From positions 1 to 51,294 of IMG/VR virus record IMGVR_UViG_3300035670_000302: a DNA stretch of 51,294 nt. One strand, written 5' to 3'. Below the pieces are notes generated by a model, which was not told where the DNA came from, did no database searches, and was given only the letters and a program-made list of their open reading frames with translations. Positions 3,596-20,039 of this stretch are shown here, in pieces (position 1 is the stretch's first letter; every line of letters starts with the position of its first letter). This stretch comes from a virus (taxonomy: Duplodnaviria > Caudoviricetes). Made by a program: the position numbers and the translations under genes.

Positions 3596-3922
3596 ATGTC
3601 ACGCGTATTCAACGGTAGCGTTTCGATCACCACTAAAGTCACCAAGGCAGGAGTCAAGGTTCTCACCTTGAAGCCTGACCAGAATGGCAAGTGGAACAGC
3701 GACAACGTCGGAGAGTGCCTCAAGAAAGTGATGGAGTTGCACAAGTCGGAGGGGTTGCCCCTCGATGAGTGGATGTTGTTTAGCCCGAAGCTCGCCAAGG
3801 GCGAAAAGGCATCGCCGGTACTCCTCGCTCGCAAGCGCTTCGGCACCCCGTATATCGCGCTGCTCGCAGCGCAGAAAACGGCGGTAGCCGCTAAGGTCGA
3901 GACCAAGCCACAAGTGTGGTGA
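3596..3922 (+). CDS. Hypothetical basic early protein
   Basis: 108 aa, SD AAGGA, first gene after the boxA leader. Confidence 0.8.
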   Translation: MSRVFNGSVSITTKVTKAGVKVLTLKPDQNGKWNSDNVGECLKKVMELHKSEGLPLDEWMLFSPKLAKGEKASPVLLARKRFGTPYIALLAAQKTAVAAKVETKPQVW

Positions 3923-3930
3923 CACAAACC

Positions 3931-3955
3931 GGCCCCAAGGATGGGGCCACCTTTT
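3931..3955 (+). terminator. Possible weak terminator or stabilising hairpin
   Basis: GGCCCCA-AGGA-TGGGGCC followed by ACCTTTT. Confidence 0.35.
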
Positions 3956-3966
3956 AGGAGAATGAA

Positions 3967-4062
3967 ATGAAGATGGCAAGCTGGAAAAATGAAAAGGTCT
4001 CACGCTGGCACGACTTCTGCTTCTGGGCAGTCGTCATACTGATCTGCGTCAAGTGGGACTGA
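3967..4062 (+). CDS. Small hydrophobic peptide (31 aa, not in ORF track)
   Basis: AGGAG SD 6 nt upstream; MKMASWKNEKVSRWHDFCFWAVVILICVKWD. Confidence 0.6.
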   Translation: MKMASWKNEKVSRWHDFCFWAVVILICVKWD

Positions 4063-4110
4063 TCGAATGGGGTGGCGCAAGCCGCCCCAACCTTAATGAA
4101 GGAGATTGAT

Positions 4111-4347
4111 ATGAGTCTGTTAACAGATCAAGGGCAGTCCCTTGTGGACGCCCACGGCGGCTACGTCGCCGCTATCACGGCCCTGCGTCAGCAGGGCTAC
4201 ACCGTGGCTGATGGTCTCGCCGTAGATGGTGGTGTGCGCCTAGCGAAACGTGGCGGTGGTTACCAAACCGCTGTCCACTGCACCAACGACGTAATCGCGC
4301 TGGTGCGGGGTTGCCCCGCCAGCCACGCAGTCGTGGCATATAAGTGA
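4111..4347 (+). CDS. Hypothetical protein
   Basis: AAGGAG SD before ATG 4111; ends just before a terminator. Confidence 0.75.
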   Translation: MSLLTDQGQSLVDAHGGYVAAITALRQQGYTVADGLAVDGGVRLAKRGGGYQTAVHCTNDVIALVRGCPASHAVVAYK

Positions 4348-4352
4348 CCAAA

Positions 4353-4378
4353 GCCCCGCCGAAAGGCGGGGTTTTTTT
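4353..4378 (+). terminator. Rho-independent terminator
   Basis: GCCCCGCC-GAAA-GGCGGGG followed by 7 T. Confidence 0.9.
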
Positions 4379-4384
4379 GTGCCT

Positions 4385-5200
4385 GAAACTTGACAACTTT
4401 ACACGTCAGGGCTGGCCGATCTAGGCCTGTAACTTGACAACTTGACACGGGGTTAGCTATCTAGCAGGTGAACCCTTCACCCATACGTCGGGGGGATGTA
4501 GGGCGCTACTTTACACAGGTACAGTACAGTAGGTACCGAACACCGAGTATGTAGTATATACTTGACATGTCAAGTTGTCAAGTTAGCGTGTATAGTTATG
4601 ATAACTTGACACGTCATGTCAAGTTAGACGTGTAAAGTTATGGTGTAAAGTTAGCATAACTTGACACGTAGTGTCAAGTTAGACGTGTAAAGTTAATAAC
4701 TTGACGTGTAAAGTTACCTACAACTATCTACGATTTTGGCCAACTATCTACAAATCTAGGCGAAAAACAGCCCCAAAAGCCATGGGTGCTAACTTTACAA
4801 CTTGACATGACCAAAGCCTTGATCCACAAGGATTTTCTTTCTTACTATACATATTTACTATCTAAACTATCTAAAGTATCTATGATTTTTTCCTACCCTT
4901 TCGCGTAGGAAATTTTTTTTTAAGCCGCTACAACTCTAGGACGATCGTATCATTTTCCAACAGATAGATACCTAAACCACCTACCTCTTCCGTAACCCCT
5001 TGATTTTACTACACTTAGCCTTCCCAAAATGTAAAGTTATCCCCAAACTATACACGCCAAAATCTAGATAGCACAGATAGTTCCGCGCCCTCCCTTCTCG
5101 CTAAGTCCTTGTTTTCTGGATATATTCTGTTCCAGCCGTGTAAAGTTACTCCCCTTTACCTAGTCCCTATTCCCCCCTAACCCCCCAAAACTTGACACGG
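4385..5200. repeat. Non-coding array of about 25 direct and inverted 9-mers (AACTTGACA/AACTTTACA/AACTATACA) plus ACTATCTA repeats; candidate origin or packaging/terminus region
   Basis: Counted by eye; includes a 40-bp direct repeat at 4601-4640 and 4656-4695 (2 mismatches), the palindrome CTTGACATGTCAAG, and an AT-rich stretch at about 4830-4925. Confidence 0.85.
4993..5005. promoter_or_regulatory. IHF-like binding site (near matches also at 4812-4824 and 5102-5114)
   Basis: TAACCCCTTGATT matches YAANNNNTTGATW, the reverse complement of the IHF consensus WATCAANNNNTTR. Confidence 0.5.
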
Positions 5201-5221
5201 CGGCCGGCCCCGTGCCATGCT
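5192..5221 (+). promoter_or_regulatory. Promoter candidate for the main early operon
   Basis: TTGACA (5192-97), N18, CATGCT preceded by TGn; shares AAACTTGACACGG with the 3390 promoter. Confidence 0.5.
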
Positions 5222-5277
5222 GATGGGGTCGAGGCAGTTCGCCCCGACATTCATGAAAATTTTGAGGTAACGACCTT

Positions 5278-5529
5278 ATGAACAAACATATTAAACAATA
5301 CAAAGCCCGTAGCGGTGTAATGATGTTCAAACCTAGTGTCCAACTGATCCAACAGATGGATGACGACATGCAAGGCTTCTGCCTTGCATGTGGAAACGTT
5401 AACGACTCTGTAGAACCCGATGCCCAACGGTATGAGTGTGAGTGCTGTGGTGAAGAGAAAGTATACGGCGCTTCCGAACTCGCCCTGATGGGTCTCTGCT
5501 TCGACGCTGAGGTAACGACCAATGCGTAA
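5278..5529 (+). CDS. Zn-ribbon protein
   Basis: CLAC...CECC pairs; motif-linked SD. Confidence 0.8.
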   Translation: MNKHIKQYKARSGVMMFKPSVQLIQQMDDDMQGFCLACGNVNDSVEPDAQRYECECCGEEKVYGASELALMGLCFDAEVTTNA

Positions 5530-5752
5530 GCATAACTTTACGATTGAAGTAACTGACACCTATGGTGGTGAGGCCAACTACGCTTGGGTCAAGAGACTCA
5601 AGGTGGTGGCCACCACAGCAAGAGGCGCTGTCCGGATGGTATCCAAAGATACCGGCTTCAAGTTCCGTCTGTCTTGGTTCGACGGCGAGACTTGGCGCTA
5701 CGATGCCAAGAACGCTTGTATCTGCCTTTTCATCAACCACGAAACCTTCTGA
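5522..5752 (+). CDS. Hypothetical early protein
   Basis: Motif-linked SD, tight operon packing. Confidence 0.8.
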   Translation: MRKHNFTIEVTDTYGGEANYAWVKRLKVVATTARGAVRMVSKDTGFKFRLSWFDGETWRYDAKNACICLFINHETF

Positions 5753-5763
5753 GGTAACGACCC

Positions 5764-6018
5764 ATGGATAAACAACAGCACCTAGACTACCTCTGTGAGG
5801 CCGCAGAATGGTCTCTCAGAAGCGGAGTAGATGTAACCGTATCACCCCACGGTAGTGTCGAGATCGTCGTCCACAGGACGACTGTGGCCCTGTTGGAAGG
5901 ACATCAGGCCGATGCCTTCCTCGACGAAGCCAAGTTCCTGTGGGAGGAACTGGAAGAAATCGCCCTTGACTGGGTGTATCTAGCCCTTGCAAAACCCTAT
6001 GTGGAGAACTCCATATGA
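5764..6018 (+). CDS. Hypothetical acidic early protein
   Basis: Motif-linked SD. Confidence 0.8.
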   Translation: MDKQQHLDYLCEAAEWSLRSGVDVTVSPHGSVEIVVHRTTVALLEGHQADAFLDEAKFLWEELEEIALDWVYLALAKPYVENSI

Positions 6019-6374
6019 GCAGACTCTGGAAAGTCGAGACCCGTATGCCCCGTATCAACAACAACGAAGCACGGCGGTACGTACAACACCGTTGCTCATT
6101 CAAGGCGAGCAATCTGTTCGCCGAACGCAAGGACATCGGCGGACTGTATGTAGTCTACAGCTATGGTCACCACTGGCCACTGTGGGTCTACGACCCCAAG
6201 GCTGAGGTGTGGTTGGAGAACACCAGCAAGTACGGACAGACGACAACTGTCCACAAGTCCAGAACCAACCCGTATGTCGAGAATGCCATCGGCATGACCA
6301 CTGACGATCTGAAGTTTTTGATCGTCTTGGGTGGTCTGGCAGAGTACACCGCCGTAAGAATGGGGGCCGCATGA
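6015..6374 (+). CDS. Hypothetical phage protein
   Basis: ATGA overlap with upstream gene; YVVYSYGHHWPL...KYGQTTTVH resembles a recurrent phage early-protein motif. Confidence 0.75.
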   Translation: MSRLWKVETRMPRINNNEARRYVQHRCSFKASNLFAERKDIGGLYVVYSYGHHWPLWVYDPKAEVWLENTSKYGQTTTVHKSRTNPYVENAIGMTTDDLKFLIVLGGLAEYTAVRMGAA

Positions 6375-6571
6375 TGTACTTGATACAGTTACCTAATGAC
6401 GCCGTCTCCGTTGGATACCGGCAAACTAAGCCGTTCCACCATGAACAAGTATTTACGTCCAGCCAGCACGGCTTCACTGGCACAGAAGCCGAGTTTGTAC
6501 AGGCTGGCATCGCATATCGGTATATCCAACTGGATAACCATTCCCGTGTAACTAACAGCAACCAGAGGTAA
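6371..6571 (+). CDS. Hypothetical protein
   Basis: ATGA overlap; stop codon falls inside the junction motif. Confidence 0.65.
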   Translation: MMYLIQLPNDAVSVGYRQTKPFHHEQVFTSSQHGFTGTEAEFVQAGIAYRYIQLDNHSRVTNSNQR

Positions 6572-6576
6572 CGACC

Positions 6577-6804
6577 ATGTCCACTCAAGCAGAGCGTAAA
6601 TCGGTGCAATACGCCCGATACAACCGACTGAATACGATACTCTTGGCCGTTGGCCGAGACGTTGAGCGATACCTCGACGACCCAGTGGCGTACCTGTCGG
6701 GGGAGTATTTCCCCGAGGTATTGGAACTAATCCGCGAAGCACAGGAGCTTGGCAAGCTCCTGCGTGAAGACCTGAAAGTAACCAACCAGCCAGCCAAGAG
6801 GTAA
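6577..6804 (+). CDS. Hypothetical protein
   Basis: Motif-linked SD; stop codon falls inside the next motif copy. Confidence 0.8.
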   Translation: MSTQAERKSVQYARYNRLNTILLAVGRDVERYLDDPVAYLSGEYFPEVLELIREAQELGKLLREDLKVTNQPAKR

Positions 6805-6810
6805 CGACCA

Positions 6811-7041
6811 ATGAAATTCCTAGAAGAGACCGAGTACGCCAAGATACCTTGGGGTGACTACATGATCCCCGTGGATATGCTCCCCGAATTTATCCGCCGT
6901 GCCCGTAGGGTACAGACGGACTATGAGAATAACGTCAGTGACGCACAGACCATCGGGGATGTCCGTATTATCCCCATGGAGAACGCGATAGCGTTCAACG
7001 TGGCCAATGCACTGACCCAACCCAAACCTAGCAAGAAGTGA
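6811..7041 (+). CDS. Hypothetical protein
   Basis: Motif-linked SD. Confidence 0.8.
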   Translation: MKFLEETEYAKIPWGDYMIPVDMLPEFIRRARRVQTDYENNVSDAQTIGDVRIIPMENAIAFNVANALTQPKPSKK

Positions 7042-7048
7042 CCAACTT

Positions 7049-7092
7049 CAAGCCCACTCAGTGAGTGGGCTTGTGGATTGTCACTGACAATC
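7049..7092. promoter_or_regulatory. Two adjacent palindromes upstream of the ATPase gene
   Basis: CAAGCCCACTCA-G-TGAGTGGGCTTG (7049-73) and GATTGTCA-C-TGACAATC (7076-92). Confidence 0.6.
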
Positions 7093-7126
7093 ACAAACTT
7101 ATTTCCAAACCAATGAGGTAACGACC

Positions 7127-8107
7127 ATGAGAGCTTCAACACTCGCCAAAACTATCCAAGCCATGTACCCCACTCGCAGAACTATCTGCATCGAAGGCGC
7201 TCCGGGGGGTGGCAAGACCAGTATCATTCGCCAAGCGGCAGAGACCCTCGGTGTTCCATACATCGAGGTGGCTGTTGCCACCAAGTTGATCGAGGATTTT
7301 GGGGCACCAGTACCCCAAGATGGCCGTCTGGCCTACACAGTACCTGACTGGTTCCCCGTCAAGGGCGAACACCCTGACGAGGGTATACTCTGTTTCGACG
7401 ACAGCAACCAAGCGGATACGGACATACAGAAAGTACTGGCGAACATCTGCCAGTCCCGTACTCTCCACGGCCACCAGATGGCTAACGTGATGGTGGTTCG
7501 TACCGGTAACCGCAAGGCTGACCGGACGGGGTCTAACAGGGTTCTGCCCCACCTCCGCAATCGTGAAAACTTCTTTACGCTTGAGACTCACCATGAGGAC
7601 TGTATCTCATGGGCAGTACAGAACGACGTTCATGAAGCGGTGATTGCCTTCTGGAACTTCCAGCCCAACACCATACACCAGTATGACGCTGATGCTGAGG
7701 CGTTCCCAAGCCCACGGTCATGGGTCGAGGGTGTCAGTAACCTTATCGGTTATGTACCCCCAGAAGCCGAGCTTGAGGTATTCACTGGTGCCATCGGTGC
7801 CGGTGCGGCGGCTACCTTCGTCGGGTTCATGAAGATTTACCGTGGTCTACCCAACCCTGACGCAATCATCATGCATCCCAAAACGGCAGAGGTGCCGACA
7901 GACATGGCGACACAGTACGCTCTGTCCGGTGCCTTGAGTCACCGCGCGACGACACAGAACTTCGGACGTATCATGGAGTACCTTGACCGTCTGTCTCCGG
8001 AGATCAACGTGGCTACCGTCAGCACTGCGATCAAGCGTGACAAGGCCCTACAGAATACCCAAGCCTTCGTCCAGTGGGCACTCAAGTTCAACAACTACAT
8101 CTACTGA
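7127..8107 (+). CDS. MoxR-like AAA+ ATPase
   Basis: Walker A GAPGGGKT, Walker B ILCFDD, sensor TGNR, PSPRSW motif; upstream of a vWA gene. Confidence 0.85.
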   Translation: MRASTLAKTIQAMYPTRRTICIEGAPGGGKTSIIRQAAETLGVPYIEVAVATKLIEDFGAPVPQDGRLAYTVPDWFPVKGEHPDEGILCFDDSNQADTDIQKVLANICQSRTLHGHQMANVMVVRTGNRKADRTGSNRVLPHLRNRENFFTLETHHEDCISWAVQNDVHEAVIAFWNFQPNTIHQYDADAEAFPSPRSWVEGVSNLIGYVPPEAELEVFTGAIGAGAAATFVGFMKIYRGLPNPDAIIMHPKTAEVPTDMATQYALSGALSHRATTQNFGRIMEYLDRLSPEINVATVSTAIKRDKALQNTQAFVQWALKFNNYIY

Positions 8108-8132
8108 TCAACCAACAAACGAGGTAACGACC

Positions 8133-8984
8133 ATGAGCATTCAACTTAACGACCGTGCCCTGCTGGTGCAACTCAGCATCAGTCAATGGACAGCCCAAAA
8201 GCGTGACAAGCGGGCAAGCCGTGAGGTTACGGACAATAACCGTGTCGTCGAGGGTATGGCACGGGTAAACAAGTCTCTGGTTCTGTCCACAGAACTGGAG
8301 GCGATCCACTCGATGTCCGGTGCCATCCGGAACAAGTACTACCAGAACACCCTGCCGTGGGGTCTGGATGGCACACAGATTCTCGCCAGCCAGAACTATC
8401 TGGCCTACATGACGGAGTTCCGTACTGACAAATCCCACTGGGATAAGTTGGTGGAAGACTTCGTGAAGGTCTACCCTTCACTGGCAAACAGGGCACGGAC
8501 TCAGCTTGGCGCACTCTACAACGCCAATGATTACCCTGACGTGGATGCCGTCAAGGCCAAGTTCTCAATCGACCTCGCAGTCTTTCCCGTACCCAAGGGA
8601 GACTTCAGGGTGTCCATCGCTGATGAAGAACTGACTCGCATCCAGCAGGATGTCGAGGCCCGAGTGCAGAAAGCACAGGGTAATGCCATGAGGGAGGCAT
8701 GGCAGAGACTGTACGACCGAGTCCAAAAGATTCAGGAGAAACTCGCCGATCCCAAGGCGATCTTCCGAGACTCACTGATCGAGAACGCACAGGAGATTTG
8801 CACACTTCTGCCACGTCTCAACCTGACCGACGATCCTGAACTGGAGGCTATGCGACAGGAGGTGGAGAAGTCCCTGCTGGTGCATCCTGATGCACTCCGA
8901 ACCAACGTAACAACACGAGAATCAACCGCCGAAAAGGCGAAAGCAATCATGGACAAAATGTCCGTATTCATGGGAGCAAGGTAA
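8133..8984 (+). CDS. Helical/coiled-coil phage protein in the MoxR-vWA cluster (possibly DUF3150-like)
   Basis: Start reassigned to ATG 8133 by the motif SD; the family guess is from memory only. Confidence 0.75.
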   Translation: MSIQLNDRALLVQLSISQWTAQKRDKRASREVTDNNRVVEGMARVNKSLVLSTELEAIHSMSGAIRNKYYQNTLPWGLDGTQILASQNYLAYMTEFRTDKSHWDKLVEDFVKVYPSLANRARTQLGALYNANDYPDVDAVKAKFSIDLAVFPVPKGDFRVSIADEELTRIQQDVEARVQKAQGNAMREAWQRLYDRVQKIQEKLADPKAIFRDSLIENAQEICTLLPRLNLTDDPELEAMRQEVEKSLLVHPDALRTNVTTRESTAEKAKAIMDKMSVFMGAR

Positions 8985-10153
8985 TGACCAGTGTAATGCC
9001 AACCAAAACCAAGAAACGCAAACAGAAGGCCGTCGACATGACCCAACTCAAGTTCCGACTGGACAAGGCCAAGATCAAGTTGATCCTTGATCACCCGTTC
9101 TTCGGTGTGATCGCCATGAAACTCCCCGTTGTGTGGACAGAGAAAGTCCCCACGGCGGCAGTCGATGGGCGGCAGATGTTCTTCAACCCCCACTTCGTTG
9201 ACGGTCTTACCGACGACGAGCTTGTGTTCTTGGTAGCACATGAGTGTATGCACCTCATGATGGAACACTGTCTCCGTCGAGGTGCCCGTGATCCACGGCG
9301 ATGGAATATCGCGGCAGACTATGTGGGTAATCACCACCTGATCGCCGACCGCATCGGCCAGATGCCAGAGGGCGGGCTTCACAGCCCCGACCTCACTGAC
9401 AACGGTAAACGTACTACCGAGCAGGTCTACGACCTGTTGCCAGATGACGGTGGTCAGGGTGAAGGTGGCGACCAAGGCGGTGGTCAGGGTGGTGATCCCC
9501 TCGACGAGATCATTGACAGCACTGATCCCACACTGGCTGACGAGACCAAGGTACTGGTAGCCCAAGCGGCACAGGCCGCACAGGCCGCTGGTAACTTGTC
9601 GGCGGGTCTCAAGCGTCTGGTCGACTCACTGATCAACCCCAAGGTCAGATGGTTTGAGGTACTCCGTGACTTCATGGTGCGGAGTCGGACGACCAAGCGT
9701 ACCTACGCCAGACCTAATCGTCGGGCGATGTTCAACAACAGCCCCGTATTGATCCCGTCGATCACGGGGTCTGTGATGGGCGAGGTGGTGGTGTTTGTCG
9801 ACTGCTCCGGTAGTATCGACGATGCCCTGCTCAAAGTCTTCGGTGCTGAACTGCGTGGTATTCAGGCAGACACCAGCCCCGAGAAACTCCACGTTATCTA
9901 CTTCGACTCGCAGGTACTTCACCACGACGAGTTTGAGGATGACGAGGTGACGGTCAATCCCCACGGCGGTGGTGGCACAGCGTTCTCTCCGCTGTTTGCC
10001 TACATCAACGACAAGGGTATTGATCCAGTATGTGCAGTGGTGCTGACTGACCTCTGCTGTAGTGACTTCGGGCCGGCACCAGCCTATCCCGTACTGTGGG
10101 TATCCACAGAGAAAACGACCGCCCCATGGGGTCAGGTCATCAAGATCAACTAA
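8984..10153 (+). CDS. Putative metallopeptidase with vWA domain (DUF2201-like)
   Basis: TAAVDG..FFNP, HECMH zincin motif, WNIAAD, Gly-rich linker, MIDAS DCSGS, GGGGT, LTD. Confidence 0.88.
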   Translation: MTSVMPTKTKKRKQKAVDMTQLKFRLDKAKIKLILDHPFFGVIAMKLPVVWTEKVPTAAVDGRQMFFNPHFVDGLTDDELVFLVAHECMHLMMEHCLRRGARDPRRWNIAADYVGNHHLIADRIGQMPEGGLHSPDLTDNGKRTTEQVYDLLPDDGGQGEGGDQGGGQGGDPLDEIIDSTDPTLADETKVLVAQAAQAAQAAGNLSAGLKRLVDSLINPKVRWFEVLRDFMVRSRTTKRTYARPNRRAMFNNSPVLIPSITGSVMGEVVVFVDCSGSIDDALLKVFGAELRGIQADTSPEKLHVIYFDSQVLHHDEFEDDEVTVNPHGGGGTAFSPLFAYINDKGIDPVCAVVLTDLCCSDFGPAPAYPVLWVSTEKTTAPWGQVIKIN

Positions 10154-10192
10154 TCAACCAACCAACGACTGATAAATCAAGAGGTAATGACC

Positions 10193-10873
10193 ATGGCTAC
10201 TGTAAATATGTCCGACACATTGCGCCAGAAAGTTCGTGTGAGAATCCAAGATATATTCTCTGACCGTGAGATTATGTTGACACAGCAAATCCACGACCAG
10301 ATCACACCGCAACAAGTTTATGAGACGCTGTTCCGCGACGAGTTGCACCTGCTGTCCAGCTTGTCCGATGCGTATGTCACCAAAGCAGGTGAGATCGCAC
10401 TGGAAATGACCTTCCCTGACGTGTCTGGAGAGGTCAATAAAACCCTCCGGTTCAAGCCACCCCGTGGGATTTTCAGACTCCCACCACGGGTGAAGGAGGT
10501 CAAGCCCGCAGTCTACGGACTGGTCAAGCACCACCACTACTCGGACAATATCTTTCTCATCGACACCACCGATCCACGGTGGGAGTACTTCATGGCTATC
10601 GCCATGCCGGTCTTCGCTGAGATCGGCAACCTCCGGCGGGAGCATAGGGACACCCGTCAACAGGTGAATAACCTGATGGAGAAATGCAAGACCCTCCAGC
10701 AAGCACTGACTGCATACCCCATGCTGATCGAGTTGGTGCCGGAGGATGTCAAACAGAAACACTTTGAGAAGGTCGAGAAGAAACCCCGTGTCAAGGCTGA
10801 GGTCGAGACACTCAAGCTCGACATCCTGACCAGTGCGGTCGTAGCCAACAAGATCGGAGGCGGCAATGCATAA
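10193..10873 (+). CDS. Hypothetical protein (possibly Nmad5-like)
   Basis: Variant motif SD; C-terminal TLQQALTAYPMLIELVP resembles Nmad5-type proteins (tentative). Confidence 0.7.
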   Translation: MATVNMSDTLRQKVRVRIQDIFSDREIMLTQQIHDQITPQQVYETLFRDELHLLSSLSDAYVTKAGEIALEMTFPDVSGEVNKTLRFKPPRGIFRLPPRVKEVKPAVYGLVKHHHYSDNIFLIDTTDPRWEYFMAIAMPVFAEIGNLRREHRDTRQQVNNLMEKCKTLQQALTAYPMLIELVPEDVKQKHFEKVEKKPRVKAEVETLKLDILTSAVVANKIGGGNA

Positions 10874-11594
10874 CCCTGTCCCACTCAGGCAAAAGTTGCG
10901 AGGTGGTGGTGACGATCCCGTCACTGCCCTCAGACGGAAGTTCAACCCCATAGGCTCAAAGGATTGGGCTGACACAGCGGGTGGTGATGTCGTCATCAAC
11001 TTCGATGGCATACCCCTACTCCGGTGTACTGACACACCGGAGGGGTACACTATCACCATGCTATGCCAGCCGGCACAGTATCTGTACGGTGCCCACTGGG
11101 CGGTCAACAAAACAATCAAGAGTATCTTTGCACTGCCGATCAACGTGCATCGTGTCCATACGATGGCGTCTGTCGGTGATCTAGGCGATGAGAATGATAA
11201 AAGTCTGCTGTACCAAGGGCTGACCGTGGACTTCACCTGCCAGACTCCGGTGCGGTGCAGTTACAAGATACGGCGCAGGGTCGACATCTGGGATGAGTCA
11301 ATCGTCCCGTATGACCATGTGCTGGATCACGTCAGAACGTGTGATCGGTTGGGTTACTTCGCCGACGCTCAGGTTCCAACCAAGTTCCGTATGCATGAGG
11401 AGATGGGGGGTGACGTGGCGTACTCCCTGATACGTTCTGCTGTGGTCGACAGGGACTACAGTACGCAGTTCATGGACTTGTTGGGTCAAGCCAAGAGCAG
11501 AAACGCTCACAACTGCCCCGTCAAGGTAGCCGAGGACATGATCCACATGCACATGGGACAACTCAAGGCAGACAACTTATGCACCCACACATAA
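10866..11594 (+). CDS. Hypothetical protein
   Basis: 242 aa, GGAGG SD, overlaps the upstream stop. Confidence 0.75.
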   Translation: MHNPVPLRQKLRGGGDDPVTALRRKFNPIGSKDWADTAGGDVVINFDGIPLLRCTDTPEGYTITMLCQPAQYLYGAHWAVNKTIKSIFALPINVHRVHTMASVGDLGDENDKSLLYQGLTVDFTCQTPVRCSYKIRRRVDIWDESIVPYDHVLDHVRTCDRLGYFADAQVPTKFRMHEEMGGDVAYSLIRSAVVDRDYSTQFMDLLGQAKSRNAHNCPVKVAEDMIHMHMGQLKADNLCTHT

Positions 11595-11611
11595 GACTAG
11601 GTGATCAAACC

Positions 11612-11755
11612 TTGACAGAGCAGGACGTGCGTAAACTACACTACCTGTTCGACTTGATTGATTACATGATGCAGACAGACCCACACTTCCGGTCTATGGT
11701 GATAGCCCATAAGACCAAAAACAGATTGACGAATGAGGATGTTAACGATGAATAA
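11612..11755 (+). CDS. Small hypothetical protein (47 aa, TTG start, not in ORF track)
   Basis: AGGTGA SD; (M)TEQDVRKLHYLFDLIDYMMQTDPHFRSMVIAHKTKNRL...; fills the intergenic gap. Confidence 0.5.
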   Translation: MTEQDVRKLHYLFDLIDYMMQTDPHFRSMVIAHKTKNRLTNEDVNDE

Positions 11756-12113
11756 CAGTCACCGGCCACAACTTGGCCTCCGTAAAGCCCCGATTGTCCA
11801 CAGATCAGCCGTGGTCACATGCAAGTACTGCGGTAACACACAACTCCAGTGGCGTGAGACCGACGCCGGATTCAAACTCTTCAGTCTCGACGGCGACCGG
11901 CATATCTGTGAGGGTATGACCAAGCAGGCAGAGTATCGCCGTGAACGTGAGAGGGAGCGGGATACAACACCTGTAAACAAGTTGGTGAAGAAGATCGCAG
12001 AAGAAATGCAAACACAACTGGACACAAAGAACGAGGAATACTTATGGGATCGGGAAGAAGTGATGTCGATGCTGGAACGTGCTTCACTGAAAGCGTTACT
12101 CCAGATCGTGTGA
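11748..12113 (+). CDS. Hypothetical protein with Zn-ribbon-like N-terminus
   Basis: CKYC...HIC; GAGGA SD before ATG 11748. Confidence 0.7.
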   Translation: MNNSHRPQLGLRKAPIVHRSAVVTCKYCGNTQLQWRETDAGFKLFSLDGDRHICEGMTKQAEYRRERERERDTTPVNKLVKKIAEEMQTQLDTKNEEYLWDREEVMSMLERASLKALLQIV

Positions 12114-12262
12114 GTAAAGCGTGGAGAGTGGTCAACTCCTGTGAGAACGCCGGCCAAGCAGAGGTAGCGTTACGCTACCTCGCCCTCTTGGCAGAGGCGT
12201 ACCCAGAGGTGGATGTCACACCACTCCAGCGGGAACTTAAAACATTATTTGATTTGAGGTAA
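12110..12262 (+). CDS. Small hypothetical protein
   Basis: GTGA overlap start; SKAWRVVNSCEN..QAEVALRY. Confidence 0.6.
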   Translation: MSKAWRVVNSCENAGQAEVALRYLALLAEAYPEVDVTPLQRELKTLFDLR

Positions 12263-12267
12263 GTGTT

Positions 12268-12603
12268 ATGGACAAGGTGCCAAGTATGACACTGCGCGAT
12301 TACTTTGCGGCGAAGGCTATGCAGGGACTGGTTGTCGCAGGGAATTTACACAGACCGACTATTGCCAGAACTGCATACGACCAAGCAGACGAAATGCTGA
12401 AGGCGACGGGGGCAGGGATGGACAAAAAAGATTACGAAGCCCTGTTAAAAGCGGCAGAACTTGCGCTTGAATCACTTGATGAATGTTCGATTAGCCCCGA
12501 CGAAATTAGTTGGGGGCCAGCATACGAGTCTGCCAAAAGACGGCGGGCACAAGCTATTAACGCATTGAGAGATTCAATCGACAAGGCAAGGGGGCAGGAA
12601 TGA
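12268..12603 (+). CDS. Hypothetical phage protein with MTLRDYFAAKAMQG motif
   Basis: Widespread phage motif; GAGGT SD. Confidence 0.8.
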   Translation: MDKVPSMTLRDYFAAKAMQGLVVAGNLHRPTIARTAYDQADEMLKATGAGMDKKDYEALLKAAELALESLDECSISPDEISWGPAYESAKRRRAQAINALRDSIDKARGQE

Positions 12604-12767
12604 AACAAGAATGGTACATACGTTTGCTTTGGTGGACGTGCGAGAAGCTAGGACATTTTGGGAAAGGCGGTTGGGTTTACAACGGTCACTACCACCAAAA
12701 TTGCAGAGTATGCAAACGCATAATAAGCGAACCGCTGAAAGACGATGATGCAAGGAGGCAGGGATGA
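12600..12767 (+). CDS. Small Cys/His protein (55 aa, not in ORF track)
   Basis: ATGA overlaps on both sides; C..LGH...CRVC. Confidence 0.6.
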   Translation: MKQEWYIRLLWWTCEKLGHFGKGGWVYNGHYHQNCRVCKRIISEPLKDDDARRQG

Positions 12768-12940
12768 ACGAGGAAGATTTTGACAAGGCGCATGAGGTAC
12801 TTGTGGTGTACCAAGATGCAATCGTCGCACTGGGTGCGGTCATGCTCAAAGGTTTAACTGATGAACAGCGTGAGTACGTCATCGACAAATGCCATGACGA
12901 GTTTCGTTTCTGGCGGGTGTCGGATGAACTCAACAAATAA
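12764..12940 (+). CDS. Small acidic protein (58 aa, not in ORF track)
   Basis: AGGAGG SD; MNEEDFDKAHEVLVVYQDAIVALGAVML... Confidence 0.65.
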   Translation: MNEEDFDKAHEVLVVYQDAIVALGAVMLKGLTDEQREYVIDKCHDEFRFWRVSDELNK

Positions 12941-12984
12941 AATCAAACACTTAACTGATGGTACCCTCACGAATGAGGGTACCA
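12941..12984 (+). promoter_or_regulatory. IHF-like site and 11-bp hairpin upstream of the DNA polymerase
   Basis: AATCAAACACTTA (12941-53) fits WATCAANNNNTTR; TGGTACCCTCA-CGAA-TGAGGGTACCA (12959-84). Confidence 0.5.
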
Positions 12985-13000
12985 AACCAAGGAACAAGCA

Positions 13001-14857
13001 ATGGATATAGTTACGATTGACTTTGAAACGTACTACTCAAAAGAGTATTCACTCTCCAAGATGACGACAGAAGAGTACGTCAGGTCGAAAGACTTTCAGG
13101 TGATCGGTGTGGGCGTCAAGGTCAATGACCACCCCACTGACTGGTACACTGGGACAAACCCGTCGAGGTTCCTGAAGTCGCTGGACTACAGTGACAAGGC
13201 GATACTGTGTCACAACACAGTATTCGATGGGGCGATACTGGGTCTGCACTTCAACATCCACCCCAAGCTGTGGCTGGATACCCTGTCGATGGCACGACCA
13301 CTCCACGCCAACACCACGGGCTGTTCACTCAAGGCACTGACCGACCACTACGGGATCGGGGTCAAGGGTACTGAGGTGCTGGATGCCCTTGGCAAACGAC
13401 GTGAGGACTTCACTCCCGCCGAAATGGAGGCATATGGTAAATACTGCATCAACGATGTGGAAATGACCTACAAGTTGTTCCAGATTCTCAAGAAGCACTA
13501 CAAAGTAGGGGAACTGCGGGTCATCGACCTGCTTCTCCGGTGCTACACCGAGCCGACGATTGAACTGGACGTACCCCTGCTGGAACAACACCTCCAGAAC
13601 ACACGGGATGCCAAGTCGTCATTGCTCAAGGCGCTGGCCAAGGACGGTGACGAGGACAAGCTCAAAGATATTCTCATGAGCAACGACAAGTTCGCCGCTC
13701 TGCTCCAAGCCCTCAAGGTAACACCTCCAACCAAGATCAGTCAGCGTACCGGCAAGGAGGCATGGGCCTTCAGCAAGACCGACCTTGAGTTCACCGCCCT
13801 GCTGGAGCATCCCAACCCCAAGGTACAGGCGGCAGTCGCCGCTCGACTGGGTACCAAGTCCACCATCGAAGAGACCCGCACAGAGAACCTGCTGGCGGTA
13901 GCAAAGCGGGGGAGACTGCCCATCCTGTTGAACTACTGGGGTGCCCACACCGGACGGCTGTCCGGCGGGGACGGGATGAATCTCCAGAACTTACCCTCCC
14001 GTGGTAATACCACGATCCGGAGGGCGCTCCGTGCCCCTGTGGGTTACGAACTGATCGCTTGCGACTCCAGCCAGATCGAAGCCCGTATCGTGGCGTGGCT
14101 GGCAGGACAGGACGATCTGGTGCAGGCGTTCCGTGAGGGGAGGGACATCTACTCCGAGTTTGCCACTGACGTGTATGGTCGTTTAATAACCAAAGCTGAT
14201 AAGACGGAGCGATTTGTAGGCAAAACCTGCATACTCGGACTAGGCTACGGGATGGGTGCCGCGAAGCTACAACGTACTCTGGAACTGGGTATGGGTGGGA
14301 TCAGCGTCAAGCTGGAACTGGGCGAGGCCGAGCGTATCGTCAGGCTCTACCGCCAGAAGTATCACAAGATACCGATGCTGTGGCGACAGTGTGATAACTT
14401 GTTAGCAGGTATCGTTACAGCCAGCGATGGCATGGTTGGCGATGTAGTTCCGTACAACGCCAAGGGTGTCCGGCTTCCCAACGGGATGTACTTGCAGTAC
14501 CCACACCTGCGACCGTCGACCAACGGCTATGAGTACATTGCCGAGCGCAAGGAACTGGCGAAGTTCAAGCGTGGAGAACCCGCCGAGTTCGACAAGATAT
14601 ACGGCGGCAAGGTAACGGAGAACATAGTACAGGCACTGGCGGCACAGGTCATCAGGGAGCAGATGGTCGAGGCAGTCAACGCCAAGATGAAGATCGTACT
14701 GCAAGTACACGACGAGATCGTGGTGTCAGTACCCAAGGAATCCGGCGAGGCGATGGAGGCCAAGCTGGTTGAGATCATGTCGACCCCGCCCAAGTGGGCG
14801 GCGGGTCTTCCCGTGGCGTGTGAGGCAGGGAGGGCCGACAACTACGGGGATACCTGA
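13001..14857 (+). CDS. polA: DNA polymerase, family A, with 3'-5' exonuclease
   Basis: Exo DFETY, HNTVFD, YCINDV; TGRLS, NLQNLP, motif A DSSQIEAR, motif B RFVGKTCILGLGYG, motif C VHDEIV. Confidence 0.96.
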   Translation: MDIVTIDFETYYSKEYSLSKMTTEEYVRSKDFQVIGVGVKVNDHPTDWYTGTNPSRFLKSLDYSDKAILCHNTVFDGAILGLHFNIHPKLWLDTLSMARPLHANTTGCSLKALTDHYGIGVKGTEVLDALGKRREDFTPAEMEAYGKYCINDVEMTYKLFQILKKHYKVGELRVIDLLLRCYTEPTIELDVPLLEQHLQNTRDAKSSLLKALAKDGDEDKLKDILMSNDKFAALLQALKVTPPTKISQRTGKEAWAFSKTDLEFTALLEHPNPKVQAAVAARLGTKSTIEETRTENLLAVAKRGRLPILLNYWGAHTGRLSGGDGMNLQNLPSRGNTTIRRALRAPVGYELIACDSSQIEARIVAWLAGQDDLVQAFREGRDIYSEFATDVYGRLITKADKTERFVGKTCILGLGYGMGAAKLQRTLELGMGGISVKLELGEAERIVRLYRQKYHKIPMLWRQCDNLLAGIVTASDGMVGDVVPYNAKGVRLPNGMYLQYPHLRPSTNGYEYIAERKELAKFKRGEPAEFDKIYGGKVTENIVQALAAQVIREQMVEAVNAKMKIVLQVHDEIVVSVPKESGEAMEAKLVEIMSTPPKWAAGLPVACEAGRADNYGDT

Positions 14858-14974
14858 GTGAAGAAGAAATGGGAGAAAGTCGTGGTTGATGTGGTCGTCG
14901 CCACGACTATCCTGTCAGTGCTGACATTGGCGCTTTGGCTACTGGTGTCGAGGCTAGGTAGTGGTCTACACTGA
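14858..14974 (+). CDS. Small membrane peptide (38 aa, GTG start)
   Basis: Basic N-terminus then hydrophobic VVVATTILSVLTLALWLLV; fills the gap. Confidence 0.45.
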   Translation: MKKKWEKVVVDVVVATTILSVLTLALWLLVSRLGSGLH

Positions 14975-14983
14975 GGGGGTAAC

Positions 14984-15199
14984 ATGAAACTTGCATACGA
15001 CATTTGCAGATGTAACGGCCAGTTGGTCGGGTACGCCTGTCCTCGCAGGGAAGGGTGCGCTCGCTATCTGGCTGAACCAGTGAGGGACAATCCGTATGTG
15101 AATGTCCCTCATGCGGACTATCTGTGCGACGACTATTTTGATTTCCAGATACCTGTGGAGCGTGATGAAGATGGAACAATTGGAATTAGATTTCGGTGA
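14984..15199 (+). CDS. Small Cys-rich protein
   Basis: DICRC...CPRREGCARY...C; GAGGGGG SD. Confidence 0.65.
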   Translation: MKLAYDICRCNGQLVGYACPRREGCARYLAEPVRDNPYVNVPHADYLCDDYFDFQIPVERDEDGTIGIRFR

Positions 15200-15455
15200 C
15201 GAGCATCGCCTTGCGGCGATAGCTCAGAACGGTAACACGGGGGAACACTATGACATGGTGAACCACCCACCACACTACACCTCCCACCCATCAGGGATTG
15301 AGTGCATAACGGTGACAGAACACATGACGTTCTGTATCGGCAACGCCATCAAATATCTGTGGCGTGTAGGGCTGAAGTCCGACAATGCGATCCAAGACTT
15401 GGAGAAAGCACGGTGGTATATCGACCGTGAGATCGCACGGAGAAAAAAGAAATGA
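15165..15455 (+). CDS. DUF3310 (SaV-like / T7 gp1.7-related) protein
   Basis: VNHPPHY...IECI...GNAIKYLWR.G.K...DLEKARWY; start position uncertain. Confidence 0.85.
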   Translation: MKMEQLELDFGDEHRLAAIAQNGNTGEHYDMVNHPPHYTSHPSGIECITVTEHMTFCIGNAIKYLWRVGLKSDNAIQDLEKARWYIDREIARRKKK

Positions 15456-15541
15456 TGGCCTTCCTGTTTTTCGTAGGGTTGGGTTTTGCTGTGACGTTCA
15501 TGGTTGTCGAACTGGCCGAGTGGTTCAGGAGAAACGAATGA
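15452..15541 (+). CDS. Small membrane peptide (29 aa)
   Basis: ATGA overlaps at both ends; MMAFLFFVGLGFAVTFMVVELAEWFRRNE. Confidence 0.55.
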   Translation: MMAFLFFVGLGFAVTFMVVELAEWFRRNE

Positions 15542-16200
15542 GACTCGCCCATTCGTACTCATCCATAAAGCTGTTTGAGAACTGCCCGCAACGGTACTAC
15601 CGCCAGCGGATTATCAAGGACATCAAGGACGAGTCCAGTGATGCCAGTGTGTACGGGGATCGCGTACACAAGATGTTGGAGGAACGACTCAAGAGTGACA
15701 CGGAGTTACCGCAGGAGGTCGAGCGGTATGAGTCACTGTGTCGTGCTGTCGAGAAGCTGGTGGCTATCGGTGGGCAACTGCACATCGAGAAAGAACTTGT
15801 CCTGACAGAGAACCTGACACCTACCGGTTGGTGGGATGGCGATGCGTGGCTCCGCTCCAAGCTGGACGTGCTGATCATCCACGGCACAACGGCTGTGGTC
15901 ATGGACTGGAAGACTGGCAAGCGGCGTCCTGATTTCTTCCAGATGCAGATGTTCGCGGCGCAGGTATTCAAGCACTACCCAGAGGTGATGACGGTCAAGG
16001 CTACGCTTGTCTGGCTGAAAGACATGGCGATGGACACTGAAATCTACAAGCGTGAATACGTTAATAGTGTATGGGCCGACATCATGCGGCGCATCAAACG
16101 TATATACGATGCACTGGAGCATGACACATGGCCGGCGAAACCCAGTGGGTTATGTAACTACTGCCCTGCGAAACACGACTGCAAATTCTCACAGAAGTAA
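15538..16200 (+). CDS. PD-(D/E)XK exonuclease (RecB/Cas4-like)
   Basis: SYSS...CP, G..VH, KLD...DWKTGK, Q...F, C-terminal C..CP...C; start reassigned to ATG 15538. Confidence 0.88.
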   Translation: MRLAHSYSSIKLFENCPQRYYRQRIIKDIKDESSDASVYGDRVHKMLEERLKSDTELPQEVERYESLCRAVEKLVAIGGQLHIEKELVLTENLTPTGWWDGDAWLRSKLDVLIIHGTTAVVMDWKTGKRRPDFFQMQMFAAQVFKHYPEVMTVKATLVWLKDMAMDTEIYKREYVNSVWADIMRRIKRIYDALEHDTWPAKPSGLCNYCPAKHDCKFSQK

Positions 16201-16220
16201 CTTGACGGAAGTGTAACGCT

Positions 16221-16550
16221 ATGGCTAGACTAACTCCAGAAAGTAAAGTTAAGGCGAGGATTACCACGTTACTGAAGAGTTACGGTGTGTGGTATTTCTT
16301 TCCAGCGATGAATGGCTTTGGTACGGCAGGTGTCCCTGACATTATCTGCTGTGTCGATGGGATATTCGTCGGAGTCGAAGCGAAGGCAGACAAAACCAAG
16401 AAGCCTACCAAGTTGCAGGTACTATGCGGCGAACGCATACAGGCAAGCGGGGGCTACTGGATGGTAGTTTGTGACGAGGATTCGATTAAAAAATTGGAAG
16501 ACCTGATATGCGTATTGTTGAAAACGCGAGGGCAATCGCTCTCAAATTGA
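16221..16550 (+). CDS. VRR-NUC domain nuclease / resolvase
   Basis: PESKVK...GVPDII...GVEAK...TKLQ. Confidence 0.85.
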   Translation: MARLTPESKVKARITTLLKSYGVWYFFPAMNGFGTAGVPDIICCVDGIFVGVEAKADKTKKPTKLQVLCGERIQASGGYWMVVCDEDSIKKLEDLICVLLKTRGQSLSN

Positions 16551-18061
16551 ATAACCCTAACAGGGTGCTAGACAGCATACCCACGGCGAAGCCTCTGAGT
16601 CATGCAGGTATTGACTTGGCGGTGGTGCCTCATCGTCTCGATGAGGTGCGGGTACTGCGGAACCTTGGTATCAAGGCTCCGTCACCGATCCTGCACTACT
16701 ACAACTGGCCCGGTCAGTACAAACCGTATGACCACCAGCGTGAGACGGCGGCGTTCCTGACGCTACACCGGCGTGGGTTGGTACTGAACGACATCGGTAC
16801 GGGCAAGACCATGAGTTGCCTGTGGGCGGCTGACTACCTCATCCGTACCAAGGCAGTCCGTAAGGTGCTGATCCTCTCCCCGCTGTCCACACTGCAACGG
16901 GTGTGGGGTGATGCGATCTTCACCAACTTCATCGACCGTGAGTTTGTTGTACTGCACGGGTCGGCAGAGCGCAGGAAGAAGTTACTGGCTACTGATGTGG
17001 ACTTCTACATCATCAACCACGATGGTTTCCCGATCATCGCCGACAGTACGATAGGTATGTTTGACCTTGTGATCGTGGACGAGGCGGCGGTTCTGCGTAA
17101 CGCCCAGACCCAACGGTACAAGATGTTTGCCCGTTACATGGACAAGAGTCCGGAGTCGTGGCTATGGTTGATGACTGGGACGCCGACACCCAACGCACCT
17201 ACCGATGCGTGGGCTTTGGCCAAGCTGGTGCAGTCGCCGTTCTGTGCGAGGACATACACTGCGTTCCGTGATCAGGTGATGCACAAGGTCACACAGTTCA
17301 AGTGGATACCCAAGCCTGAGTCCGTGGAGATCGTGAAGCACGTTCTCCAGCCGGCAGTGCGGTACACACGGGACGAGTGCCTTGACTTGCCTGACACGGT
17401 TATCCAGACACGGCAGGTGGCCCTGACTCCCGAGCAGAAGAAGCACTACCAGACTATGCTCAAACATTTCTCCGTGCAGATGGCATCCGAGGGGTCTATC
17501 ACTGCGGTCAACGAGGCGGTGAAGTTGCAGAAGCTGGTGCAGATCGCTTGCGGTGTGGCCTACGGCGATGATGGGCGGCACATTGAACTCGACGCATCGC
17601 CACGGGTGAACTTGGTACGGGACTTGATCGAAGAGGTGGGTGAGAAGGTCATCGTGTTTGTGCCACTGACCGGCACACTGCACATGCTGGAGAAGGAATT
17701 ATCCAGATATTTCACGGTGGCTGTGGTAAACGGGGAGGTGTCTGCCACCAAGCGGTCGGAGATATTCCGACAGTTTCAGGATGAGCGTGACCCTCATGTA
17801 CTGATTGCACACCCCGGCACGATGGCACACGGTCTGACGCTGACCACGGCTTCTACGATTATCTGGTATGGCCCGAGCAACAGTAATGAGACATACCAGC
17901 AGGCCAATGGTCGCATCGAACGTATCGGTAAGAAGCACGTCTCCAACGTAATACATATTGAGGGGACAGAGTTGGAGGCGAAGATGTACGAACGCCTCCG
18001 TAACAAACAGAAACTACAGGGCTTACTGCTCGACTTGATCCAAGAACAAACGAGGAAATAA
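16508..18061 (+). CDS. SNF2-family (SF2) helicase
   Basis: DIGTGKT, DEAA, MTGTP, HGLTLT, QANGRIERIG. Confidence 0.92.
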   Translation: MRIVENARAIALKLNNPNRVLDSIPTAKPLSHAGIDLAVVPHRLDEVRVLRNLGIKAPSPILHYYNWPGQYKPYDHQRETAAFLTLHRRGLVLNDIGTGKTMSCLWAADYLIRTKAVRKVLILSPLSTLQRVWGDAIFTNFIDREFVVLHGSAERRKKLLATDVDFYIINHDGFPIIADSTIGMFDLVIVDEAAVLRNAQTQRYKMFARYMDKSPESWLWLMTGTPTPNAPTDAWALAKLVQSPFCARTYTAFRDQVMHKVTQFKWIPKPESVEIVKHVLQPAVRYTRDECLDLPDTVIQTRQVALTPEQKKHYQTMLKHFSVQMASEGSITAVNEAVKLQKLVQIACGVAYGDDGRHIELDASPRVNLVRDLIEEVGEKVIVFVPLTGTLHMLEKELSRYFTVAVVNGEVSATKRSEIFRQFQDERDPHVLIAHPGTMAHGLTLTTASTIIWYGPSNSNETYQQANGRIERIGKKHVSNVIHIEGTELEAKMYERLRNKQKLQGLLLDLIQEQTRK

Positions 18062-18063
18062 CA

Positions 18064-18318
18064 ATGGATGATATGTCTCCCGACCAGTTTATGGAGGGGG
18101 TATCGGATCGCGCTGGTAAAGTCCAAGACCTTATCCCCGCCGTTATGACGGTAAACGAATTGATACTGTGGACATCCGCACTCCTGCGAACCAGTGCTGA
18201 ACTGGTGCAGTGCGCGGGTTTCGATAGATCAGCAGTCGTGAAGATTTTTGAAGACTACCTCGCACAGGTAGAGCAACTGGCAAAAGACGGCGTATATACA
18301 CAGGAGCGAATACACTAA
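18064..18318 (+). CDS. Hypothetical protein
   Basis: GAGGA SD, operon packing. Confidence 0.7.
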   Translation: MDDMSPDQFMEGVSDRAGKVQDLIPAVMTVNELILWTSALLRTSAELVQCAGFDRSAVVKIFEDYLAQVEQLAKDGVYTQERIH

Positions 18319-18719
18319 TGAGTGTCACAGTGGAGCAAGCAATCGGCGCATACATGAAGTTGCGCCTACAGAAAGAAGAGATCGAAGGTCAGGTCAAGAC
18401 GCAAGTCGCCGAGATCAAGGCCAAGATGGAGAAGCTGGAAGCGTGGATCAAGGAACAGGCTGACGCCCAAGGCGTTACCAGTTTCAAGACCAAGGCCGGC
18501 ACGGCGTTCCTGACGACTGCGGACTTTGCGACCGTGGCCGACTGGGATGCACTGCTCAGTTTCATCCGTGAGAACGAGGCTTTCGATATGTTTGAGAAGC
18601 GCGTCAGCAAGATTGCTGTGCGTGGCTACATCGAAAAGTTGAAAGCTGTACCGCCCGGTGTCAACTACGGCACCAAACTTGAAGTCAACATCCGTAAACC
18701 AACTGCTAAGGTAGAGTAA
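18318..18719 (+). CDS. Conserved phage replication-module protein
   Basis: Coiled-coil N-terminus, V.DWDA...F, VPPGVN. Confidence 0.8.
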   Translation: MSVTVEQAIGAYMKLRLQKEEIEGQVKTQVAEIKAKMEKLEAWIKEQADAQGVTSFKTKAGTAFLTTADFATVADWDALLSFIRENEAFDMFEKRVSKIAVRGYIEKLKAVPPGVNYGTKLEVNIRKPTAKVE

Positions 18720-18720
18720 A

Positions 18721-19728: not shown

Positions 19729-20002
19729 ACCCATCGACTTCACGAAGGTGGAGTCGCTGAGGCGTCACATGCTCCTGACGCAAGCTGATATGTCGGTTAT
19801 CTTGTCTGTCTCACGGATGACGTACTACTCTTGGGTGGGGGGTAAACCCCTACGCAAGAATAATGAGGTCAAGGTCAAAACTACAATCAAGAAGTTGTTG
19901 TCAGTTATGACCAAGCATGGTTGGCCCATGCCGGAAATCTGTGCGATGGATCAGAAAGGCCGGCGACAGCGGCTCTTGGAACTACTGGCCGACGAACAAT
20001 AA
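19721..20002 (+). CDS. HTH (Cro/XRE-like) DNA-binding protein
   Basis: LRRHMLLTQADMSVILSVSRMTYYSW; GAGGTG SD. Confidence 0.75.
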   Translation: MSKPIDFTKVESLRRHMLLTQADMSVILSVSRMTYYSWVGGKPLRKNNEVKVKTTIKKLLSVMTKHGWPMPEICAMDQKGRRQRLLELLADEQ

Positions 20003-20039
20003 CTATAGGGGGGAGTCGCCTCCCCCCATTGGGAGCAAT

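Follow-up and report, generated by a model that had tools for sequence, protein, structure and literature searches.

A 12-nucleotide tag before most early genes of an uncultured tailed phage and before early genes of unrelated lambdoid prophages, with gene gain, loss and exchange at its copies

The start-associated sequences (SAS) of Cluster K mycobacteriophages, reported by Pope et al. in 2011 (PMC3203893) and treated in a survey of 188 genomes (PMC12699233), are 13-bp elements with the consensus GGGATAGGAGCCC and up to two mismatches, about half of which are accompanied by an extended SAS of 17-bp imperfect inverted repeats upstream (PMC3203893, PMC12699233). In the passages devoted to them their function is still treated as unsettled, and the 2025 paper calls for experimental verification (PMC12699233). 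A SAS-like repeat of 26 bp is present in the Citrobacter myophage Mordin (PMC4611695). In T4-type phages, Arbiol et al. (2010; PMC2839356) described the promoter-early stem-loop (PeSL) cassettes as repeated regulatory cassettes lying by small non-essential early genes, in which recombination from copy to copy accounts for insertions, deletions and replacements that distinguish close relatives. Here we describe a 12-nt sequence, GAGGTAACGACC (hereafter the tag), repeated in the early region of a tailed phage (Duplodnaviria; Caudoviricetes) represented by the IMG/VR virus record IMGVR_UViG_3300035670_000302; the window analysed is the whole record, linear and 51,294 bases long, with an estimated CheckV completeness of 93%. 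The tag lies directly before start codons, in one orientation and at early genes only, is conserved at orthologous gene junctions, recurs in phages unrelated to that of the window, and is a place where whole genes are lost, gained and exchanged, in one instance by a crossover that maps within the tag itself.

Judged by analogy of layout and behaviour, the closest analogues of the tag are the Cluster K SAS and the T4-type PeSL cassettes. As far as the published passages on SAS go, both SAS and tag are short asymmetric repeats in many copies with a Shine-Dalgarno core inside, both stand a few nucleotides before starts, mostly ATG, in a single orientation and at non-structural genes only, and both have symmetric outer letters, sometimes contain the stop codon of the upstream gene and are conserved beyond 16S rRNA pairing. 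All the traits that define SAS as a functional class, namely a multicopy core repeat, adjacency to starts in one orientation and restriction to non-structural genes, were found for the tag. It nevertheless falls outside the Cluster K SAS family proper, since sequence, phage group and extended SAS all differ: the tag has other letters and occurs in another host phylum than that given for SAS, and an alignment of 10 copies with 40-nt flanks showed no conservation outside the 12-mer and no extended-SAS inverted repeat. The same passages restrict SAS to a single phage cluster and do not mention recombination at their copies, whereas the tag is identical in phages without common early genes and is associated with natural indels and a chimera. 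The Mordin repeat differs in length and sequence, and its description is a genome announcement without comparison or mechanism. With PeSL cassettes the tag shares recombination from copy to copy, leading to indels and replacements of small genes. PeSL cassettes, which are reportedly also the subject of Comeau et al. 2014 (PMC4122927), combine a sigma-70-type promoter with a terminator stem-loop and act on transcription, as the passages on them have it, whereas the tag measures 12 nt, too short to hold a promoter, and sits at the ribosome-binding site. A promoter scan of 3900-13200 placed no site at any tag copy, and no terminator-like site was found at any of them.

In the window the 12-mer occurs in seven exact copies, all on the + strand (Table 1), against 0.01 expected, and none of 100 shuffles reached seven. 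The first-pass annotation of this DNA had listed these seven copies, each 0-2 nt before an ATG, together with two variants confined to the early block, and both statements hold: copies with at most one mismatch lie without exception (8/8) inside 5264-10192. With up to two mismatches there are 14 matches against 4.77 expected. The degenerate core GGTAAYGACC matches 10 times against 0.30 expected, nine times on the + strand within 5266-10192 and once on the - strand (47150-47159), within a late gene rather than before a start codon. Eight of the 11 + strand genes that start between 5278 and 10193 are clearly tagged; two others, starting at 6015 and 6371, overlap the preceding stop codon and are untagged, and doubt attaches to the copy at 8978, which has an ATG within its own letters and GGGAG upstream. 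Gene calling across the window gave 56 genes, and the tag precedes none of the other called starts; late genes have varied Shine-Dalgarno sites and spacers. As had been claimed, the TAA within the tag serves as the stop codon of the upstream gene at 6571, 6804 and 8984 (three of the nine window copies), and C/A-rich tracts precede several copies, the 20 nt upstream having a C+A fraction of 0.70-0.80 in six of nine cases against a background of 0.50 +/- 0.12.

Five genomes (219 kb) were pooled, with a total of 39 copies with at most one mismatch, obtained by searches that mostly required the letters of the internal stem to be intact. A start codon within 0-3 nt, opening a reading frame of at least 40 residues, follows 25 of the 26 exact copies and 9 of the 13 with one mismatch. 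Among these 34 start-associated copies the start is ATG in all cases except one, and the gap to it measures 0, 1, 2 and 3 nt in 13, 15, 5 and 1 copies. The variants seen alter letters 1, 8 and 9 (three types). With T at letter 8 the tag acquires an ATG of its own, which shares the reading frame of the true start in all four start-associated cases. Across 19 orthologous pairs at nine junctions, taken as those with the tag or a one-letter variant in every orthologue, the tag is identical at 221 of 228 positions (97%), against 155 of 456 (34%) in the 24 nt upstream and 164 of 342 in the 18 nt after the ATG. The tag is, on this conservation, under constraint, and the earlier observation that conservation extends past the Shine-Dalgarno core into the spacer was borne out.

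The tag had been regarded as private to the window phage, which proved wrong, as an identical tag is used by an unrelated group of prophages. Pattern scans yielded provirus G001 as well as G002 and G003, with seven, six and two copies of GGTAAYGACC. In the genome of Enterovibrio sp. 27052020O (G005) the 11-mer AGGTAACGACC occurs 15 times; 13 of these occurrences fall in a 17 kb stretch of a single prophage and point outwards on two divergent arms. The tags of this group precede lambda-P-like, RecT-like (a label read from the N-terminal sequence alone), RdgC, DUF3268 and excisionase-like genes, and the tagged genes are the early operons of lambdoid prophages. G001 and G002 are relatives of each other and of the Enterovibrio prophage; between the window and the prophage group no common early protein was detected by blastp at E <= 1e-5. 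An 18-letter version of the tag was found in 21 IMG/VR stretches against about two expected by a rough estimate, most of them in the prophage group. In L008/G004, the nearest distinct relative of the window (54% identity in the ATPase, 68.5% in the polymerase), the tag is absent altogether and orthologous genes, including the ATPase orthologue of L008, use other ribosome sites; the eight loci of relatives found through the ATPase (51-54% identity) contain neither the tag nor a comparable repeated 10-mer. Homologues of g5522, one of the small tagged genes of the window, lack a tag in front in both L008 (48.5%) and G003 (34%).

A 15-mer scan of IMG/VR returned 105 stretches with one match each, about the number due to chance, among which a recount of the 12-mer with Y at letter 8 left three with two or more copies, and a two-copy pattern scan of IMG/VR gave no match. 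In metagenomes the two-copy pattern identified L122, a true relative of the window, and L121, an unrelated tandem array. A 16-mer scan of bacterial genomes matched at least 120 stretches; the 80 listed are taxonomically scattered, only L143 (five copies) being prominent and L144 having two copies on opposite strands, and among these listed matches no host for the window phage was recognised. A literature search with the 11-mer, judged by titles and covering neither subscription journals nor supplements, gave no phage paper.

These counts bear on the explanation that nothing more than a strong ribosome-binding site of the ordinary kind has been multiplied here, whether by chance or through simple common descent of duplicated genes, in favour of which stand the normal Shine-Dalgarno core of the tag and its normal distance to the start. 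In 201 genomes of the family of Enterovibrio, clusters of the 12-mer were found only in G005 (nine copies) and G094 (three, on one contig), while the remaining genomes hold 0-3 scattered copies, the level of the control; the tag is not a host-typical ribosome site. Seven copies where 0.01 are expected, unrelated downstream proteins, flanks that do not align, the varied sites of late genes and the lack of the tag in host genomes make this explanation scarcely tenable, and we consider it refuted by the counts in the window, in G005 and in the 201 genomes. Extended pairing with the anti-Shine-Dalgarno region was likewise rejected for the Enterovibrio G005 16S rRNA: the best duplex reaches -8.8 kcal/mol, and 92 of 200 shuffled spacers pair equally well.

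The first-pass annotation saw a mini-hairpin in GGT-N4-ACC. The complementarity of the outer letters stands, and all three variant types spare the stem, as expected if a GGU-AACG-ACC hairpin were the functional unit acting as an mRNA signal. The stable fold does not: the stem-loop has -0.6 kcal/mol, 23 of 200 shuffles fold equally well, and it appears in two of eight folds of copies in their 67-nt context. Moreover, stem variants would be invisible to searches that mostly demanded intact stem letters, and three variant types sparing six of twelve letters have a chance of about 1 in 8, all of which renders the hairpin most improbable as the unit of function. Six of the eight window contexts are less well folded than their own shuffles, which fits open initiation regions.

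A spacer fixed far beyond the need of ribosome pairing, and identical in unrelated lineages, might instead reflect an mRNA operator by which a trans-acting regulator (protein, small RNA or endoribonuclease) switches the early set together, an idea weighed by the SAS authors for their own element in the passages concerned (PMC3203893). Use of the tag is all-or-none per genome (nine copies in the window, none in G004) and restricted to early genes, and stand-alone ACGACCA copies on the sense strand of early leaders in the prophage group hint at a factor. Such a regulator is nonetheless unlikely in our view. Lacking a common early protein at the blastp threshold given above, a phage factor would have to be either undetectably diverged or host-encoded, and the tag has no stable structure for a protein to recognise. 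The non-coding DNA of the window contains no reverse-complement copy with up to two mismatches, and scans of the window found no Rfam family and no tRNA; an antisense small RNA was rejected on these grounds. The sole obvious small zinc-ribbon candidate, g5278, was discarded as well, having a sub-threshold zinc-finger match only and no match to any RNA-binding family. Joint shut-off through many early initiation regions is the mode of action of the T4 RegB endoribonuclease and the RegA translational repressor, the former cutting at the four-letter GGAG. The tag reads GAGG and then T and lacks this RegB target, and neither family was matched among the 30 window proteins scanned, a subset of its genes. 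The RfaH ops element, tRNA mimicry and sites for Hfq or CsrA were also considered, and we take them to be poor fits.

Operators acting at the level of DNA deserve separate mention. Asymmetric, multicopy, aligned with transcription and present on both divergent early arms of temperate prophages, the tag could be a DNA site at which a phage repressor blocks elongation, like the orientation-specific stoperators of Cluster A mycobacteriophages, named as a contrast case in the SAS paper where it discusses them (PMC3203893). However, a DNA operator needs neither the 0-3 nt distance to a start seen in 34 of 39 pooled copies nor a Shine-Dalgarno core, and no repressor or integrase was recognised in the same subset of window proteins. 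We regard this explanation as quite improbable.

The first-pass annotation had proposed that gene gain or loss in related genomes should show breakpoints at the motif, and this was found in L122, in run X12, in provirus L283 and in a gene slot of G001 and G002. The metagenome contig L122, 91.5% identical to the control region of the window, has diverged homologues of g5278 and g5764 linked by a single tag copy, the 242-nt unit of g5522 and one tag being absent. In run X12, the only contig over this place, 1963 nt long and with about 89-93% identity to the window, joins 6563 to 6797 and skips the 233-nt unit of g6577 and one tag; 14 letters at the joint fit either side, and the skipped part is covered by no X12 contig. 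A 14-nt repeat should be too short for an assembly mis-join at this joint; the Logan assembly uses 31-letter words. Other contigs lack g6371, replaced in X13 by 38 other letters (joint 6374 to 6598), or both g6371 and g6577, as in a minor X5 contig (6374 to 6811), with ends at gene boundaries 2-22 nt from a tag copy. Two joints, 5288 to 5372 and 10404 to 10466, lie inside genes and away from tag copies, and low-confidence joints with a shorter side of less than 30 letters were not used (5775 to 5883, 8362 to 8627, 8374 to 8943, 8653 to 8736, 8962 to 10076 and 9985 to 10084).

Non-homologous genes take the same place in the prophage group. G001 and G002 carry them in one slot with a tag copy on either side, one gene being RdgC-like and of about 300 residues (302-320), the other unrelated and of about 420, and homology between the two genomes ends at the outer edges of the two flanking tags. 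Provirus L283 has both the upstream flank and the variant tag (T at letter 8) of G001 type, directly followed by the downstream gene of G002 type, a make-up that places the crossover after letter 8 and no further than the tag's 3' edge; on its sequence, L283 is a chimera with the crossover inside the tag. Genes for recombination are present on both sides, RecT-like and RdgC in the prophage group and a PD-(D/E)XK nuclease in the window. Phage recombinases are held, in passages of one study, to drive phage mosaicism (PMC3945230).

Taken with the results on position and conservation, these events lead us to favour, as the probable explanation, that the tag is a standardised translation-start adaptor which is at the same time a short recombination joint for ready-to-express early genes. 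Behind its GAGG Shine-Dalgarno core comes a spacer of constant sequence (in the window, TAACGACC plus 0-2 nt), which sets the ATG 8-10 nt after the core, mostly within G-poor, C/A-rich and weakly structured leaders of early genes. Any gene arriving behind the tag would gain a ready ribosome landing site, some copies also providing the stop of the preceding gene, and the tag may drive efficient initiation or re-initiation. Exact copies at gene boundaries are also short direct repeats, through which whole genes are deleted, inserted or exchanged in directly expressible form, presumably by annealing-type phage recombinases that would use the 12-14 nt of identity. Both roles together, in translation and in recombination, may keep the letters fixed.

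Several points weigh against this explanation. That genes recombine at the tag is proved by the indels, but not that the tag is kept for this purpose: deletion is expected between any direct repeats, and gene boundaries are preferred places for mosaic breakpoints anyway. The X12 library is labelled cDNA, and a jump of reverse transcriptase is a remaining alternative for its joint. No annealing recombinase was identified among the window proteins scanned. The conservation figures come from junctions selected for the tag, and do not include two others (iv and ix), each with an ordinary site in one orthologue. Among the 39 pooled copies, no more than 5 have an internal TAA that ends the upstream gene. 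The identity of the CGACC part of the spacer is unexplained by 16S rRNA pairing in G005 (92 of 200 shuffles, as above); an optimal ribosome site should be used by host genes, and it is not; and L008/G004, without any copy even at orthologous genes, indicate that the tag is dispensable.

A bolder extension, which we put forward as a tentative possibility, is that the 12-nt adaptor common to unrelated phages works like an integron without integrase, its letters being fixed for compatibility with a shared gene pool. Annealing recombination would carry open reading frames (ORFs) bounded by the adaptor from place to place, in one phage or from one phage to another, with immediate translation, making the ribosome-binding site the modular unit of exchange for early genes. 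Integrons possess a dedicated integrase and folded attC sites of about 60-120 nt. Their cassettes and the tagged genes are alike in being promoterless single genes exchanged at a short conserved boundary element; the tag differs in that no such integrase was recognised among the window proteins scanned and in that the boundary element is the ribosome site itself.

SAS have been known since 2011, and the occurrence of the same exact tag in lambdoid prophages of a culturable Vibrionaceae genome makes the question testable. The joints provide sequence-level evidence on the turnover of small unassigned early genes, which are lost, gained and swapped at the ribosome-binding site, with one crossover mapped within a few letters. 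In practice, contigs of uncultured phages can be read with the tag as a marker of early genes and of their true start codons, and it may serve as a portable translation-start part.

Table 1. Tag copies and adjoining features in the window
Feature	Position	Strand	Remark
Exact tag, then TT, ATG of g5278	5264..5275	+	Exact in L122 though flanks differ
g5278 (zinc-ribbon-like, 83 aa), which opens the early operon	ATG 5278	+	
Exact tag, then A, ATG of g5522	5509..5520	+	Upstream gene reads through and stops at 5527-5529
g5522, 76 aa	5522..5752	+	With one tag copy, the 242-nt unit missing from L122
Exact tag, then C, ATG of g5764	5751..5762	+	Exact in L122
g6371, 66 aa, untagged start	6371..6571	+	Coupled by ATGA overlap
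Exact tag abutting ATG of g6577	6565..6576	+	Internal TAA stops g6371
g6577, 75 aa	6577..6804	+	With one tag copy, a 233-nt unit
Exact tag, then A, ATG of g6811	6798..6809	+	Internal TAA stops g6577
Exact tag abutting ATG of AAA_5 (MoxR-like) ATPase	7115..7126	+	Preceded by C/A-rich intergenic leader
Exact tag abutting ATG 8133 of conserved 283-aa protein	8121..8132	+	
Doubtful variant AAGGTAATGACC	8978..8989	+	TAA is the upstream stop
One-letter variant GAGGTAATGACC abutting ATG 10193	10181..10192	+	Its own ATG at 10187 in frame with 10193
Partial look-alike GAGGTAAGTGTT before ATG 12268	12256..12267	+	One X13 contig joint starts at 12261

At the copy before g5764 the upstream TGA stop overlaps letters 1-2 of the tag, and the gene for the DUF2201 metallopeptidase/VWA protein starts either at ATG 8984, inside AAGGTAATGACC, or at 8996. 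The + strand genes of the window span 5278 to 22877 and comprise small unassigned genes, the AAA_5 ATPase, the DUF2201 protein, a DNA polymerase, the PD-(D/E)XK nuclease, a helicase and a primase. The large - strand ORFs we take for virion genes; the product of 47504-48427, the sole one searched, matches major capsid proteins. Among named phages even the nearest are remote (Rhizobium phage RHph_TM3_14A, capsid 55% and polymerase 38%; Pseudomonas phage KPP25, polymerase 36%), and blastn of 5000-12000 against GenBank phages gave no match. Synteny of the trio of ATPase, 283-aa protein without a family and DUF2201 protein (7127-10153) extends to five viral contigs of relatives (L008, L011, L012, L013 and L015; 41-58% identity) and at least in part to a sixth, L010, and the ATPase and metallopeptidase genes have the same order in RHph_TM3_14A. 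After the primase gene, on the opposite strand, lies a single ORF of 2502 residues (22861-30369); similar giant ORFs of 3000-3400 residues occur in G001 and G002.

Between the divergent gene blocks, positions 4380-5200 are densely filled with AACTT(G/T)ACA(CG) words and their inverted form (C)GTGTAAAGTTA, in at least seven direct copies and 23 inverted pairs, with ACTATCTA words alongside. This array, 91.5% identical in L122 and far better conserved than the adjoining genes, probably serves as operator, promoter or origin; what looks like the early promoter is TTGACA at 5190-5195 with CATGCT 17 nt further on. Within g12268, whose N-terminus matches phrog_2201, read depth spikes at 12286-12324 in all four runs (275 in X5, 113 in X9), and the loose ends of dozens of contigs fall precisely at 12284-12288 and 12323-12326, which implies a segment of about 39 nt common to many otherwise different sequences.

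Some repeats outside the window also merit description. In L121 (Ga0206125_10033064) positions 2390-2740 form an unrelated tandem array of units of about 52-76 nt, in which five of six listed copies equal GAGGTAACGACC and one lacks the leading G, none of them standing before a start codon. In G003, - strand tag copies at 13236 and 13587, 351 nt apart, have the same 20 letters upstream, as if a complete leader with its tag had recently been duplicated or converted. Several stand-alone copies of (A)ACGACCA(A/G) occur on the sense strand in rightward early-operon leaders of the lambdoid prophages (G005:C1 at about 2,083,790-2,083,900; G001 26040-26140; G002 50400-50530), some in what appear by eye to be hairpin loops, and these leaders also contain a tag copy that no start codon follows; the stand-alone word could be a binding site with the same core as the tag spacer.

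The palindrome GTTACC-N-GGTAAC, for which we know of no described function, is absent from the window. It is abundant in RHph_TM3_14A (L271; MN988472.1, 12000-60889), where 44 AGGTAAC sites, 22 per strand, mostly have a TTACC-type word, chiefly (G)TTACC, 4-5 nt upstream, and where the sites are spread over coding and non-coding DNA alike.

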